A stretch of 64,000 nt of DNA from a virus (IMGVR_UViG_3300042337_000526:53744-117743); one strand, 5' to 3'. Positions 526-51,381 are shown, numbered from the stretch's first letter. Numbers and translations are program-made. The notes: a model not told the origin generated them from the sequence alone.

Positions 526-3060
526 ATGGCCAAAATAAATGTTTTTGATAAATCAGAACCAGATAAAATTATTCCTAAAAAATCAAAGTTATTTTCTAAC
601 TGCTGTTCATGTGTCACGGATGAAAAAGAAGAACCAGTAATTTCGCCAACCCCAACTTCAAGTGTTGCTATTACTGCCACCTCAAAAGGAATACTAACTC
701 CAACGCCAACCGCAAAAAATATACCAACTCAAACTCCAACAACGAGTATTACTCCCAGCCCATCATCATCATTAATTCCTTCTAGTCCAACACCAACCTC
801 GAAATTGATAATAACGGCAACACCAACCTCAACATTTAAAATACCTTCTACACCAACAAAAACAGCAACGCCCACAAAGAGTATATCACCAACATCAACA
901 TCTCAAGCAACCCCAACCCCAACAAAAACAGCAACGCCAACAAAGAGTACAACCCCAACCAAAAGTATCACTCCTACCAAAACAGTAACACGAACGCCCA
1001 CAAAAAAACCAATAATTATTTCATCTCAACCTCTTTTTGACAAATCCTCTTGGTCATCTGTGCCAGAACCATATTTAAGCTATTTAAATGAAGCAGCAGA
1101 TCGATGGTCTAGGTATATAAAATATAATTCAACAACATACCAACTTATAAAAAATGATTATGCTAAAAGTAACAAGATATGGAATGGACTAGCCTTAGAT
1201 TTAACTAAATTTACTTTTTATAATGACGTATCAGTTACGACGATAGCATCATGTGGGCCGCTTGATGGATATGATTTAGACGATGGAAAAGGAATTAAAT
1301 TTAATTCATCAACATTTCAATTAAAAATAAATAGTTATTATAGTGGACCATGGGTAGTAGATGGTAAGACGTATATTTTTAATGATAAAGATTGGATAAA
1401 CATTATAACGCATGAGCTAGGACATGCTTTAGGTATTGGCATATTTTGGAGAAAAGAAGTAATATCTTATACAGATGGCGTACCACCAATAAATAATTTA
1501 TTAGATGGAAGTGTATACACTAACGCTAAAAATGCTTATAATTCTATAACATCATTAACTAGAACAAAAATACCACTAGAAAACAGTAGCGAAGACGGCG
1601 GCGTCGATGGACATTGGGAAAATTCTTACAGATTTCCATTAAATGGAGAACAAGTATATTATGGTTTATCAAATGAATTAATGGTAGGAGAAGTGTCTCC
1701 TGGAGCAACTAGAATAATTTCATCTTTAAGTATTAAAACTTTAGTTGATTTTGGTTATGAAGAAGTATTTCCAGGGTCTAGCGAGGGAAAACCAACAGTA
1801 ATATCTTCTGCTTTTAATCCATTCGGGTTGATGTCTATAGAAAATAATTTATCAACCATTAAAATGAATTGCTCTTGTGAGTATAAACCAATAATTAAAA
1901 AACTAGCAAAAGATGATAAACAAAAAATTAATGTTGTAATAAAAAATACAGATTGGAATATAAAAACTGAATGTGAACCAAGGTTATTTTCTAATTGTTG
2001 TGAATGTTCTGATCCTTTTATTCGTCCAAGTAGAACACCGCGGCCAACAATTACTCCCACAAAAACCCCGAAACCAACAACATCTCCAACCAGAACACCA
2101 ACTAAAACAGCAACGCCAACAAAAAGCATCACACCAACTAAGACAACAACGCCAACCAATAGCATTACGCCAACTAAAACAACGACACCAACTAAAACAG
2201 CAACACCAACAATCACAGTAACGCCAACAGCCACGGTAACACCAACGGTCACAGTAACGTCAACTAAAACAGCAACGCCAACAAAAAGCATCACACCAAC
2301 TAAGACAACAACGCCCACCAATAGTATTACGCCAACTAAAACAGCAACGCCAACTAAAACAGCAACGCCAACAAAAAGCATCACACCAACTAAGACAACA
2401 ACGCCAACCAATAGTATCACGCCAACTAAAACAGCAACGCCAACAACCACAGTAACTCCAACAGTCACAGCAACGCCAACAGTCACAGCAACGCCAACAG
2501 TCACAGCAACGCCAACAACCACAGCAACGCCAACAGTCACAGCAACGCCAACAACCACAGTAACTCCAACAGTCACAGCAACGCCAACAGTCACAGCAAC
2601 GCCAACAGTCACAGCAACGCCAACAGTCACAGCAACGCCAACAACCACAGCAACGCCAACACTCACACCAACGCCAACAGTCACAGCAACACCAACAGTT
2701 ACAATAACGGCCACAAATACGCTAACTCCATCAACAACACTAACAGCAACTCAAACAAAAACTCCTACTCCAACCCTAACTCCAACGTCAACAGATACTA
2801 CTCCCGTATTGCCAACTTTTGTTGCTTGTGATAATATAAATAATATAATAGATAATCCATGGGATCCTGCTAATTCCTGCGATGCAGCAATCGATAATGG
2901 CCTAGTGTTTAATATAACATTACCTGTCAATAATTATATTTATGGAATTGATGATACTATTGTTTTCTTAGCAACCTATAGTCAAATACAACCAGACACA
3001 TTAATTAATATGGTAGCAAGCTTATATACAAGATATTACACTCCAAAAATATGTGAATAA
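526..3060 (+). CDS. Thr/Pro-repeat protein with leishmanolysin-like (M8/metzincin) zinc metalloprotease domain
   Basis: HELGHALG zinc motif (His codon at 1411), third ligand in DGHWE (1612) and Met-turn NELM (1672-1683), flanked by two long TP-rich tracts. RBS aggac upstream. Confidence 0.85.
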   Translation: MAKINVFDKSEPDKIIPKKSKLFSNCCSCVTDEKEEPVISPTPTSSVAITATSKGILTPTPTAKNIPTQTPTTSITPSPSSSLIPSSPTPTSKLIITATPTSTFKIPSTPTKTATPTKSISPTSTSQATPTPTKTATPTKSTTPTKSITPTKTVTRTPTKKPIIISSQPLFDKSSWSSVPEPYLSYLNEAADRWSRYIKYNSTTYQLIKNDYAKSNKIWNGLALDLTKFTFYNDVSVTTIASCGPLDGYDLDDGKGIKFNSSTFQLKINSYYSGPWVVDGKTYIFNDKDWINIITHELGHALGIGIFWRKEVISYTDGVPPINNLLDGSVYTNAKNAYNSITSLTRTKIPLENSSEDGGVDGHWENSYRFPLNGEQVYYGLSNELMVGEVSPGATRIISSLSIKTLVDFGYEEVFPGSSEGKPTVISSAFNPFGLMSIENNLSTIKMNCSCEYKPIIKKLAKDDKQKINVVIKNTDWNIKTECEPRLFSNCCECSDPFIRPSRTPRPTITPTKTPKPTTSPTRTPTKTATPTKSITPTKTTTPTNSITPTKTTTPTKTATPTITVTPTATVTPTVTVTSTKTATPTKSITPTKTTTPTNSITPTKTATPTKTATPTKSITPTKTTTPTNSITPTKTATPTTTVTPTVTATPTVTATPTVTATPTTTATPTVTATPTTTVTPTVTATPTVTATPTVTATPTVTATPTTTATPTLTPTPTVTATPTVTITATNTLTPSTTLTATQTKTPTPTLTPTSTDTTPVLPTFVACDNINNIIDNPWDPANSCDAAIDNGLVFNITLPVNNYIYGIDDTIVFLATYSQIQPDTLINMVASLYTRYYTPKICE
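2101..2694 (+). repeat. Intragenic tandem array of 33 x 18-nt units encoding T-x-T-x-T-P hexapeptides
   Basis: Units such as acagtcacagcaacgcca (TVTATP) repeat directly from 2461. A 72-nt higher-order unit (TKTATP-TKSITP-TKTTTP-TNSITP) recurs at 2101, 2263 and 2353. The 18-nt phase is unbroken from 2101 to 2694. Confidence 0.95.
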
Positions 3061-3070
3061 AAGGAAATTT

Positions 3071-50584: not shown

Positions 50585-50586
50585 CA

Positions 50587-51381
50587 ATGAATACAGATAT
50601 TATTATACATTGTAGTGGTGGCTTGGGCAACAGACTAACTACTCTATACTCTACTTATGCCCTAACATTAAAGTACGGATTTAAATTTAAATATTTTTGG
50701 GATTCTGATTTTGGATATGAATGGAAATTTAATAGTTTATTTGACTATGATTTACCTTTGATTGAAAAAACATCAAATTCTAATATTGTAAGAAATAAAT
50801 TATTTAATGAGAGTGATCGTACACATAAAAAATCTGAAATTTTAACTGTTCAAGATTTACACAGTAAAATTTTATGGCTATCTCCTGGCCATCCAAGGAT
50901 AGAAAATGATTTAACTTATACTACCAGTAGTTATAAAAATGTTTTTGAACATATATCGATATCTTCTAAATTATTAAATAAAATCAATAATATACATATA
51001 CCTAAAAATACTATTGGTATACATATCCGTGGTGGAGATATAAAAAATCCTCAGAATCTTGATCCAAATGATAAAAGAAGATATGTTTTTCCAACAAATA
51101 TATTTACTATAATCGATAATAGTAATAATTCTTTTTTTATTAGTTGTGAAGATAGCGAGGATCAGATGCTATTCAAAAATAGATATTCAAATAATAAAAT
51201 TATATATTTAGAAAACTGTACTTATGACCGAATCAGTGAACTTGGACTACAAGATGCTTTCATTAATCTAATATTATTATCAAAGTGCTCGATGATTATT
51301 GGAAATATGGGAAGTACTTTTTCAGGGGTGGCTAGGATGATAGGAGAGATTGATTTTAAAGATTGTACCAATGAAGGATAA
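50587..51381 (+). CDS. GT11/O-FucT-like fucosyltransferase
   Basis: IIIHCSGGLGNRL, IGIHIRGGD, FFISCED, IIGNMGSTFS. Confidence 0.75.
   Translation: MNTDIIIHCSGGLGNRLTTLYSTYALTLKYGFKFKYFWDSDFGYEWKFNSLFDYDLPLIEKTSNSNIVRNKLFNESDRTHKKSEILTVQDLHSKILWLSPGHPRIENDLTYTTSSYKNVFEHISISSKLLNKINNIHIPKNTIGIHIRGGDIKNPQNLDPNDKRRYVFPTNIFTIIDNSNNSFFISCEDSEDQMLFKNRYSNNKIIYLENCTYDRISELGLQDAFINLILLSKCSMIIGNMGSTFSGVARMIGEIDFKDCTNEG

Follow-up and report, generated by a model that had tools for sequence, protein, structure and literature searches.

A GT60 glycosyltransferase cassette and threonine/proline-rich proteins in an uncultured phage: a candidate mucin-type O-glycosylation system

The 64,000-nucleotide stretch of DNA analyzed here (the window) belongs to the genome of an uncultured phage, some 150 to 190 kb in size, with genes for UvsX, DnaB, a primase, PhoH, and a class II RNR. 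On its minus strand it encodes a GT60 glycosyltransferase cassette whose counterparts in related phages and in bacteria lie close to open reading frames rich in threonine and proline (PT-rich ORFs). We put at roughly 55% the probability that this cassette and the PT-tract proteins P0001 and P0002 from the same window form a phage mucin-type O-glycosylation system that acts on the phage's own PT-tract proteins. Such a system had been proposed in a sequence-only reading of this DNA. Its core, a GT60 initiator working on Thr/Pro tracts, gains comparative support from the clustering of PT-rich ORFs at the cassette flanks, from adjacency in bacteria, from a fold like that of the ppGalNAc-Ts, and from the periodic acid-Schiff staining of virion proteins of phage XacN1, whereas the coupling of GT60 to fcl is confined to the window and the single large pathway is not supported.

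Results

The first glyco-cluster of the window is on the minus strand throughout, as a unit running from 22198 to about 15679. Its predicted initiator (19276..20565, minus strand) is a soluble GT60 polypeptide alpha-GlcNAc-transferase-like enzyme. This assignment, made in the sequence-only reading, is firm: PF11397 matches the product with an E value of 2.2e-70 (238 bits; cutoff, 21), and the same profile is precomputed on all 120 homologues among the matches listed. Three motifs are invariant in 27 GT60 sequences, namely, D106-S107-H108 (DxH), G217-E218-E219 (GEE), and H243-E244-Y245 (in WHEY). The AF2 model (pLDDT 90) has a GT-A fold and an additional beta-rich C-terminal domain at about residues 330 to 429. 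In a Foldseek comparison with the PDB, ranks 1 to 47 are all ppGalNAc-Ts (E values of 1e-9 to 2e-7), and the best matches are nearly all ppGalNAc-T1, -T2, -T4, -T7, -T10, and -T12, PGANT9, and TgGalNAc-T3. The GT60 enzymes characterized so far are polypeptide Thr/Hyp alpha-GlcNAc transferases (PMC8724618, PMC3188802), and we infer by analogy that the phage enzyme would transfer HexNAc to Thr.

Directly upstream of the GT60 gene, and overlapping its start, lies a gene (20537..22198, minus strand) for a 553-aa tandem dual GT-A glycosyltransferase (Pfam HtrL_YibB, E value of 1e-10). Its N-terminal domain is HtrL/YibB-like and retains W142-x-D144 only; its C-terminal domain has an invariant E389-D390-D391 (alignment A1). 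The model (pLDDT 85) contains two GT-A domains and finds its best Foldseek matches in LARGE1, LH3, ColGalT1, Mimivirus R699, K4CP, and PmHS2 (E values of 2e-11 to 3e-8); on this modeled fold, the protein is predicted to act as a glycan extender or polymerase. It is this gene, and not fcl, that is the conserved partner of GT60, an observation that is new here: a dual GT-A homologue is present in 78 of 82 related GT60 loci, and the adjacency of GT60 and dual GT is also seen in bacteria of many phyla. The expected co-occurrence of GT60 and fcl across relatives fails, as fcl is found in 0 of the same 82 loci and the coupling is confined to the window.

Within the window, the TGA of GT60 overlaps the ATG of the fcl-like gene at 19279, as ATGA. 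The latter gene (18347..19279, minus strand) encodes a GDP-L-fucose synthase-like SDR (Pfam Epimerase, E value of 4e-46) with a predicted role in GDP-fucose supply, and its best NCBIfam match is GDPFucSynFcl (GDP-L-fucose synthase, NF047922; E value of 1.8e-74, 251 bits, with a curated cutoff of 500). The window ORFs that were scanned include no GMD gene. Two NodZ/FUT8/O-FucT-like ORFs follow on the same strand, one at 17457..18350, which is a paralogue of 49745-50584 (E value of 1e-11), and one at 16620..17453, which contains SGLGD...HVRTQD. Neither matched Pfam or NCBIfam. Their nearest Atlas clusters (features, 0.95 to 0.97; structure TM, 0.65 to 0.79) bear NodZ, FUT8_N_cat, or O-FucT on 11 to 96% of members, and the HxRxxD-type motifs were spotted by eye. 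The junction and gene order are as had been read; the fcl-like score lies below the cutoff, and the two fucosyltransferase-like genes are leads by their Atlas neighbors. The last larger gene of the unit encodes a 316-aa ORF (15679..16629, minus strand) that is conserved in the GT60-positive relatives G001, G012, and G005 only.

In three clusters (15.7-22.2, 23.6-31.0, and 45.1-51.4 kb), of which this unit is the first, roughly 15 or more further GT-like genes and a SAM methyltransferase had been suggested. The methyltransferase is confirmed (Methyltransf_24 at 24260-24838), but the GT count shrinks to seven solid genes (GT60, dual GT-A, two GT2, GT4, GT47, and a weak GT32-like gene) and four fucosyltransferase-like leads (17457; 16620; 49745, the paralogue of 17457; and 50575, with GGLGN...HIRGGD), with six ORFs without assignment. 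Many of these genes lie in two plus-strand islands. Island 1 (23616..27993) comprises, by Pfam, an ORF, Methyltransf_24, the weak GT32-like gene, a GT2, an ORF, a DUF4254-like gene, and a GT2; island 2 (45237..51381) comprises a 621-aa ORF, a GT47 exostosin-like gene, two ORFs, a fucosyltransferase-like gene (49745-50584), and a GT11-like gene (50575-51381). Nine near-complete relatives have no homologues of either island, apart from 27253-27993 in G011 and Methyltransf_24 (34 to 48% identity) in G005, G004, and G010; by this comparison of sequences, both islands are strain-specific. A trio of GT4 (29964-31022, which also matches "GT4 in conflict systems"), nucleoside deoxyribosyltransferase-like, and GMP-reductase-like genes is kept in every closer relative, GT60 or not, and is found even where a relative lacks both GT60 and PT proteins. 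Since the islands are missing from the nine relatives, even where GT60 and PT proteins are both encoded, and the GT4 trio also occurs where both are lacking, a single concerted pathway with 15 or more enzymes is not demonstrated.

The long Thr/Pro stalks that had been described are present in two proteins, P0001 and P0002, which are encoded by the only PT-rich ORFs of the whole window and are candidate glycosylation substrates; their genes lie 6 to 19 kb from GT60, on the opposite (plus) strand. P0001 (526..3060; 844 aa) consists of three Thr/Pro tracts (residues 54-80, 96-163, and 496-768, with 11 PTVT and 52 TPT units), a central globular domain with HELGH (HExxH), and a C-terminal domain. 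Its composition is 23% T and 11% P, compared to 6.9% and 4.4% for all ORFs; no Pfam family matched it, and its single weak relative is in an uncultured marine phage fosmid. P0002 (5316..13190; 2,624 aa) is fibre- or adhesin-like, with six Thr/Pro linkers joining globular domains that include BNR-like modules, an RCC1 propeller (E value of 3e-94), and a LamG-like C terminus. In G005, G010, and G007, P0002 has partial homologues among giant ORFs that are PT-rich (32 to 35% identity). Thr exceeds Ser 5- to 7-fold in the PT tracts, and the globular parts of the two proteins had no match in PHROG and phage databases.

The linkage of GT60 to PT-rich ORFs is weak in the window, strong at the local scale in related phage loci, and moderate in bacteria. 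A PT-rich ORF lies within 10 kb in 59 of 80 IMG/VR GT60 loci and in 6 of 80 RNR-centered loci, and, counted by gene, the frequency of PT-rich ORFs near GT60 is about 20 times that in RNR neighborhoods (104/1,370 versus 7/1,874). In 49 nonredundant loci, PT-rich ORFs account for 38/186 within two genes outside the cassette, 19/501 farther out, and 0/119 between GT60 and the dual GT; the Fisher P value of 7e-11 for the outer positions, like the adjacency counts, ignores phylogeny, and the loci, many of which share synteny, are not independent. The gene immediately upstream of GT60 is PT-rich in 16 of 48 cases, which belong to seven families, and the PT-rich ORFs that flank the cassette across related phages represent no fewer than 25 sequence families. 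After the dual GT comes a conserved gene, often with a poly-Thr/PT tail, and the interior of the cassette in related loci holds GT25, GT10 fucosyltransferase, GT2-like, and NodU-like carbamoyltransferase genes. The TPTxTPT pattern, searched in DNA, occurs in 40 of 46 GT60-positive records and almost never as the reversed control.

Among the closest relatives, G001, G012, G005, and the window carry GT60 and dual GT together with 3, 11, 8, and 2 PT ORFs, respectively, the PT genes of the first three, which belong to the subclade of the window, lying tens of kilobases from GT60; G004 and G006 have neither GT60/dual GT nor PT ORFs. A genome-level two-by-two table is not significant, because PT-rich ORFs (5 in G010, 7 in G007) occur in two genomes where not even an HMM search finds GT60 or the dual GT, and because PT tracts are missing from two genomes with GT60, G057 (219 kb, 88% complete) and G011 (whose GT60 is divergent). 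GT60 homologues number more than 7,000 in a metagenome protein set and 353 in bacterial species representatives. In bacteria, PT ORFs account for 16/305 within three genes of GT60 and 6/344 farther away (P = 0.016; about 3-fold), and a PT ORF directly beside GT60 is seen in Bacteroidota, Verrucomicrobiota, Actinobacteriota, and Gemmatimonadota.

Discussion

The minus-strand unit most likely represents a cytoplasmic pathway of mucin-type protein O-glycosylation. The soluble GT60 would place a HexNAc on Thr of Thr/Pro tracts, for which the precedent of the family points to alpha-GlcNAc with UDP-GlcNAc as the presumed donor; the tandem dual GT-A would then lengthen this primer, with a repeating disaccharide as one possible glycan structure. 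In the window phage in particular, the two NodZ/FUT8-like transferases may fucosylate the chain, for which the translationally coupled fcl-like reductase would finish the GDP-fucose. The PT-tract proteins that the phage itself encodes, in this case P0001 and P0002, are the likely acceptors; they would be modified in the host cytoplasm, ahead of lysis, and have a putative place in the virion. The GT islands at 23.6 to 28 kb and 45 to 51 kb may add variety to this glycan or have some other target.

PT linkers commonly occur as unglycosylated spacers, and an unlikely alternative takes them as such: the GTs, GT60 and dual GT included, would build or alter the LPS O-antigen, capsule, or EPS of the host in the course of infection (for example, against superinfection), and the PT proteins would be fibres or adhesins that have nothing to do with them, with plain linkers. 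Variable phage GT clusters have been read as envelope remodeling in jumbo cyanophages (PMC7824862), and strain specificity of the kind seen in both islands is known from O-antigen loci. The window has a PAP2 phosphatase, HtrL/YibB, GT25, GT4, and GT47 are typical of polysaccharide loci, the dual GT-A fold is common to the capsule polymerases K4CP and PmHS2, and G010 and G007 have PT proteins without GT60. However, remodeling of the envelope does not account for the presence of PT-rich ORFs from many unrelated families beside the cassette, in phages as well as in bacteria; the nearest structural relatives of GT60 are nearly all polypeptide-directed, and the window ORFs scanned include no Wzx/Wzy flippase/polymerase, ABC exporter, or initiating phosphoglycosyltransferase.

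The linkage itself might be coincidental, GT60 having as its acceptor a non-PT host or phage protein or a small molecule and sharing with the PT genes a hypervariable accessory or fibre region. The four discordant genomes (GT60 without PT in G057 and G011, PT without GT60 in G010 and G007), the shared synteny that makes counts from many adjacent loci nonindependent, and an enrichment in bacteria of no more than about 3-fold speak for this explanation. We nevertheless consider it quite unlikely, since PT-rich ORFs are absent from the cassette interior and reach 20% at its immediate outer flanks, their families turn over at one position (seven at rank -1), and the adjacency recurs in the bacterial phyla named above. 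Very improbable, and plausible for the GT4 trio only, is that some transferases add sugars to nucleotides or to the bases of phage DNA as a protection against restriction. The dCMP deaminase, RNR, and dNMP kinase genes of the window, along with the two nucleotide-related genes of the trio, would suit such a role, as would the conflict-system match of GT4, the conservation of the trio regardless of GT60, and the DNA polymerase that the cassette adjoins in the jumbo clade. Yet the ORFs scanned include neither a hydroxymethylase nor a TET/JBP-type enzyme, the folds of GT60 and the dual GT are those of protein- or polysaccharide-directed enzymes, and a cassette with fucosyl- and carbamoyltransferases is unlike known DNA glycosylation systems.

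A mucin-type system in the window would have its nearest enzymatic parallel in protists. The GT60 enzymes known there (the Dictyostelium Golgi pp-alphaGlcNAcT, the Trypanosoma cruzi mucin initiator, and Gnt1, which acts on Skp1) have in common with the window PF11397, DxH, and Thr/Pro-rich acceptor-like tracts, and cytoplasmic Gnt1 is soluble, as is the window GT60. To our knowledge, none of the characterized GT60 enzymes is prokaryotic or viral. The Skp1 glycan pathway studied by the West laboratory also combines a two-domain extending transferase (the bifunctional PgtA) with fucose genes; its fusion is GT2/GT74, whereas that of the window is HtrL-like plus GT-A. The window system further differs in being prokaryotic/viral and known from sequence alone, in its extra beta-rich C-terminal domain, and in having no prolyl hydroxylase. 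The GT27 polypeptide GalNAc-transferases of animals and apicomplexans are the closest solved structures, with common DxH and GEE-type motifs and mucin tandem-repeat substrates, but identity to the window GT60 is only 11 to 18%, and they reside in the Golgi as type II membrane proteins, carry a ricin lectin domain, and use UDP-GalNAc. Lack of a C-terminal lectin or targeting domain sets GT60 apart from GT27; the window enzyme has the beta-rich C-terminal domain described above.

Among phages, Che8, Corndog, and Myrna, which infect mycobacteria, O-glycosylate their own proteins in the host cytoplasm with their own GTs (Freeman et al. 2023, as summarized in PMC12363180), and the statement that no such bacteriophage pathway had been described has to be qualified: virion glycosylation by phages is known, although with other enzymes and substrates. 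That system is experimentally demonstrated, its GTs (Che8 gp110 and Corndog gp38) act on the C termini of capsid or tail-tube proteins, its hosts are actinobacterial, and its enzymes are not reported as GT60, whereas the window has genes only and long PT-repeat tracts; the likeness is functional only. Our search found no literature linking GT60 with phage protein glycosylation. Among 50,697 records, the cultured phages with a GT60 homologue are XacN1 and Xoo-sp13 of Xanthomonas and CM1 and RAS14 of Stenotrophomonas only (48 to 51% identity), and the first two also carry the dual GT (39 to 40% identity). These four have a giant ORF with PT linkers, in short tracts, after the baseplate genes; they differ from the window in size (300 to 385 kb), in their gammaproteobacterial hosts, and in having a carbamoyltransferase, not fcl, after GT60, and their published annotation reads "glycosyltransferase" only. 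At least two virion proteins of XacN1 are periodic acid-Schiff-positive, in bands not mapped to proteins, and its description raises phage protein glycosylation in general terms only (PMC5852040). Giant viruses (chlorovirus capsid glycans, Mimivirus fibrils) likewise encode sugar-nucleotide synthesis and GTs that act on virion proteins independently of the host, and one of the proteins that the dual GT matches in fold is Mimivirus R699; they are, however, viruses of eukaryotes with a different initiating chemistry, for which a GT60/PT-tract pairing is not described.

On a wider reading, to which we tentatively give a little less than an even chance, GT60 as initiator and the dual GT-A as polymerase form a widespread, undescribed mucin-type O-glycosylation system of prokaryotes and phages. 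The Thr/Pro tracts of bacterial proteins and of phage fibres or adhesins would thereby bear glycan brushes that vary between strains (fucosylated, carbamoylated). Many large environmental phages would then have a self-made glycocalyx, and mucin initiation of the GT60/GT27 type would not be an invention of eukaryotes only. If the proposed system is real, bacteriophages and bacteria of several phyla make mucin-like glycoproteins by means of a family characterized so far only in protists, and the ubiquitous PT "linkers" of phage fibres could be glycan-bearing brushes, not inert spacers, which could affect stiffness, protease resistance, adsorption, and recognition by immune systems or grazers.

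RESULTS

The protein encoded at 19276-20565 on the minus strand clearly belongs to the GT60 family (PF11397, E = 2e-70), and it stands next to a 553-aa tandem GT-A gene (20537-22198, minus strand; here the dual GT) that has a homologue in 78 of 82 loci with a GT60 homologue, drawn from 80 IMG/VR loci and two cultured jumbo phages. Sequence searches of the PDB returned no matches for either protein, and fold searches were therefore required. In the GT60 model (pLDDT 90), the best 47 fold-match ranks are all polypeptide GalNAc-transferases, and the DxH, GEE, and WHEY motifs are invariant. 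The model of the dual GT, built on a 22-sequence alignment (pLDDT 85), has two GT-A domains, with bifunctional two-domain transferases as top PDB matches, namely, LARGE1, LH3, ColGalT1, Mimivirus R699, the chondroitin polymerase K4CP, and the heparosan synthase PmHS2. These folds and motifs define a core composed of an initiator-like enzyme of the mucin-initiating superfamily and a dual extending enzyme, whose adjacency recurs in bacterial genomes of many phyla. Residues about 330 to 429 of GT60 form an extra beta-rich C-terminal domain, kept in phage homologues, a possible module for binding of acceptor or glycan comparable to the lectin domain in GT27 enzymes.

The GT60 TGA overlaps the start codon (ATG at 19279) of an fcl-like SDR gene (18347-19279, minus strand), in line with the overlap described in the sequence-only reading; GDP-L-fucose synthase is the top NCBIfam match of this SDR, at a score under the curated cutoff. 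The two ORFs that follow (17457-18350 and 16620-17453, minus strand) gave zero HMM matches, and ESM-Atlas features and structure place them among clusters of the NodZ/FUT8/O-FucT type. Neither GMD nor a prolyl hydroxylase was found among the window ORFs scanned. We rejected fcl as a conserved partner of GT60, given that an fcl-like gene is near GT60 in 0 of the 82 loci.

Only two ORFs in the window are Thr/Pro rich (PT rich). P0001 (526-3060, plus strand; 844 aa) bears three PT tracts with 11 PTVT and 52 TPT units, as well as a globular domain between them with an HELGH motif, while in P0002 (5316-13190, plus strand; 2,624 aa) six Thr/Pro linkers join BNR-like modules, an RCC1 propeller (E = 3e-94), and a LamG-like end. 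The repeats noted for both genes in the sequence-only reading are confirmed, with Thr 5- to 7-fold over Ser in the tracts. The virion role proposed for the two proteins found no support in PHROG, Pfam, or phage-database searches, and a PHROG scan of the genes around the PT cluster of the related genome G012 gave one tail-fiber match only, at the contig start. An HNH endonuclease gene (4951-5313) lies between P0001 and P0002, and genes for a trypsin-like (S1) and a subtilase (S8) protease (13187-14873) lie directly downstream of P0002, a pair kept in most closer relatives. A 319-aa antisense ORF wholly within the PT repeats of P0001 (1755-2714, minus strand) is a repeat-composition artifact, not a gene, and a general Cys-Cys signal upstream of PT tracts was dropped, being present at 13 of 209 tracts, essentially one homologous family plus P0001.

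Across the wider set of loci, PT-rich ORFs cluster around GT60. They occur within 10 kb of it in 59 of the 80 IMG/VR loci compared to 6 of 80 loci centered on RNR, and account for 104 of 1,370 genes around GT60 compared to 7 of 1,874 around RNR. When the set was made nonredundant (49 loci, GT60 <95% identical), the gene immediately upstream of GT60 was PT rich in 16 of 48 cases, compared to ∼3 to 5% at a distance of at least four genes. Inside the cassette that runs from GT60 to the dual GT, PT-rich ORFs are absent (0/119); they make up 38 of 186 genes up to two genes outside it and 19 of 501 farther away (Fisher P = 7e-11, kinship ignored). Comparison of the PT ORFs after masking of their tracts gave 25 sequence families, 7 of which occupy the position immediately upstream of GT60, and the PT-rich neighbors seen in relatives have no homologues in the window, so that the linkage is to the tracts rather than to a single gene family. 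In a clade of ∼300-kb jumbo phages, PT-rich ORFs come first, then GT60, an interior of variable content (unknown genes and genes for GT25, GT10 fucosyltransferase, GT2-like, and NodU-like carbamoyltransferase proteins), and the dual GT; next come a small conserved domain, in many cases with a poly-Thr/PT tail at its end, and DNA polymerase. The protein at L032:15438-16079 and 32 members of its family in related loci share an N-terminal domain of ∼125 aa, conserved and starting with MEFFIKKNATLP. The domain, found directly after the dual GT in nearly all cases, can stand alone, carry a poly-Thr/PT tail with CPxC motifs, or be joined to large C-terminal domains, and it resembles a modular anchor of fiber-type proteins.

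At the genome level, among nine near-complete relatives, the pattern is mixed. GT60, the dual GT, and PT ORFs are all present in G001, G012, and G005 and all missing from G004, G006, and G008. The more distant G010 and G007 (loci L190-L197 and L221-L227) carry five to seven giant PT-rich ORFs and neither enzyme, and may use another initiating enzyme or leave their tracts bare. Conversely, G011 lacks PT tracts although it has a GT60, a divergent one, and outside these nine the 219-kb record G057 has GT60 and lacks the TPTxTPT pattern; PT tracts and GT60 can therefore each exist independently of the other. Co-occurrence of GT60 and PT tracts thus hints at a link within the closest subclade, yet it has exceptions and is not significant among the near-complete relatives. 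G010 further has a Methyltransf_24 homologue and, at 46% identity, an fcl-like gene. A 189-aa ORF at 23045-23614, macro-domain-like by eye and with zero Pfam matches, adjoins the GT60 pair in three relatives (G001, G012, and G005) and also occurs in two that lack GT60 (G004 and G006).

The window itself (64 kb, 32% G+C, closely packed ORFs) encodes in its right third PhoH, a UvsX-like recombinase, a DnaB-like helicase, a primase, a dNMP kinase, a class II RNR, and a dCMP deaminase. Its RNR is 87 to 98% identical to RNRs on IMG/VR contigs of 130 to 190 kb with a CheckV completeness of 92 to 100%, which indicates an uncultured phage of roughly 150 to 190 kb as the source; megablast found no DNA match between cultured phages and the 15- to 31-kb part of the window. 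No tRNAs or terminators were found in the window, and a promoter scan gave sites no more numerous than in shuffles. Accessory genes at 31490-37341, between the GT clusters, encode endonuclease VII, a ferritin-like protein, a ClpP-like protease, a sigma-70 region 4 protein, and a PAP2 phosphatase that otherwise occurs in G001 alone.

DISCUSSION

We consider a cytoplasmic, mucin-type O-glycosylation of PT-tract proteins somewhat better than an even bet (about 55%) as the function of the GT60 cassette. In such a pathway, GT60 would initiate on Thr of PT-tract proteins in the cytoplasm, the dual GT would extend the glycan thus begun, and, in this phage, the fcl product and two or three fucosyltransferase-like enzymes would add fucose. 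Both precedents are already known: virion glycosylation by phage-encoded enzymes in mycobacteriophages (Freeman et al. 2023, as related in PMC12363180 and PMC11256854) and GT60 function in protists (PMC8724618, PMC3188802). A literature search for GT60 together with phage found nothing relevant.

The GTs could instead remodel host polysaccharides, which we regard as unlikely for the set as a whole and likelier for the strain-specific GT islands at 23616-27993 and 45237-51381 (plus strand), absent as units from all nine near-complete relatives. The count of 15 or more GTs in the sequence-only reading was too generous: seven can be counted as firm (GT60, the dual GT, GT4, GT47, two members of GT2, and one weak GT32-like gene), four are fucosyltransferase-like leads, and six ORFs remain unassigned. 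Modification of nucleic acids by the GTs is more improbable still and plausible only for a trio at 28091-31022, in which a GT4 accompanies nucleoside 2-deoxyribosyltransferase (NDT)-like and IMPDH/GMP-reductase (GMPR)-like genes. A second match of this GT4 is to "GT4 in conflict systems," and the trio is kept in all closer relatives, including those that have neither GT60 nor PT proteins; the three genes resemble a module of their own, directed at nucleotides or nucleosides, with a possible role in DNA modification or antidefense. With the islands missing from relatives and the trio independent of GT60 and PT proteins, membership of these genes in the same pathway should not be assumed. Slightly less probable than polysaccharide remodeling is a coincidental neighborhood, with GT60 acting on a different acceptor. 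The PT genes are distant from GT60 in the window, G001, G012, and G005, and this distance, along with the mixed pattern among the nine genomes, weakens the case for glycosylation.

Two settings outside the uncultured phages bear on O-glycosylation of PT tracts. The cultured Xanthomonas jumbo phage XacN1 has both GT60 and the dual GT, and at least two proteins of its virions are PAS positive (PMC5852040). After its baseplate genes, XacN1 has a giant PT-linker ORF, distant homologues of which bear the annotation of virion structural protein. Among bacteria, PT ORFs are immediate neighbors of GT60 in Jiulongibacter sediminis and in genomes of Saprospiraceae, Opitutaceae, Acidimicrobiaceae, and Gemmatimonadaceae, and PT enrichment near GT60 is about 3-fold (P = 0.016), a rough figure based on crude gene calls, because ORF calling is poor in high-GC loci and left GT60 uncalled in 19 of 80 loci. 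In J. sediminis JN14-9 (L254, NZ_LGTQ01000005.1, 8959-15163), the PT-rich ORF is divergent from the adjoining GT60, and further large genes follow. This cultured strain offers a tractable model for the link between GT60 and PT tracts beyond phages.
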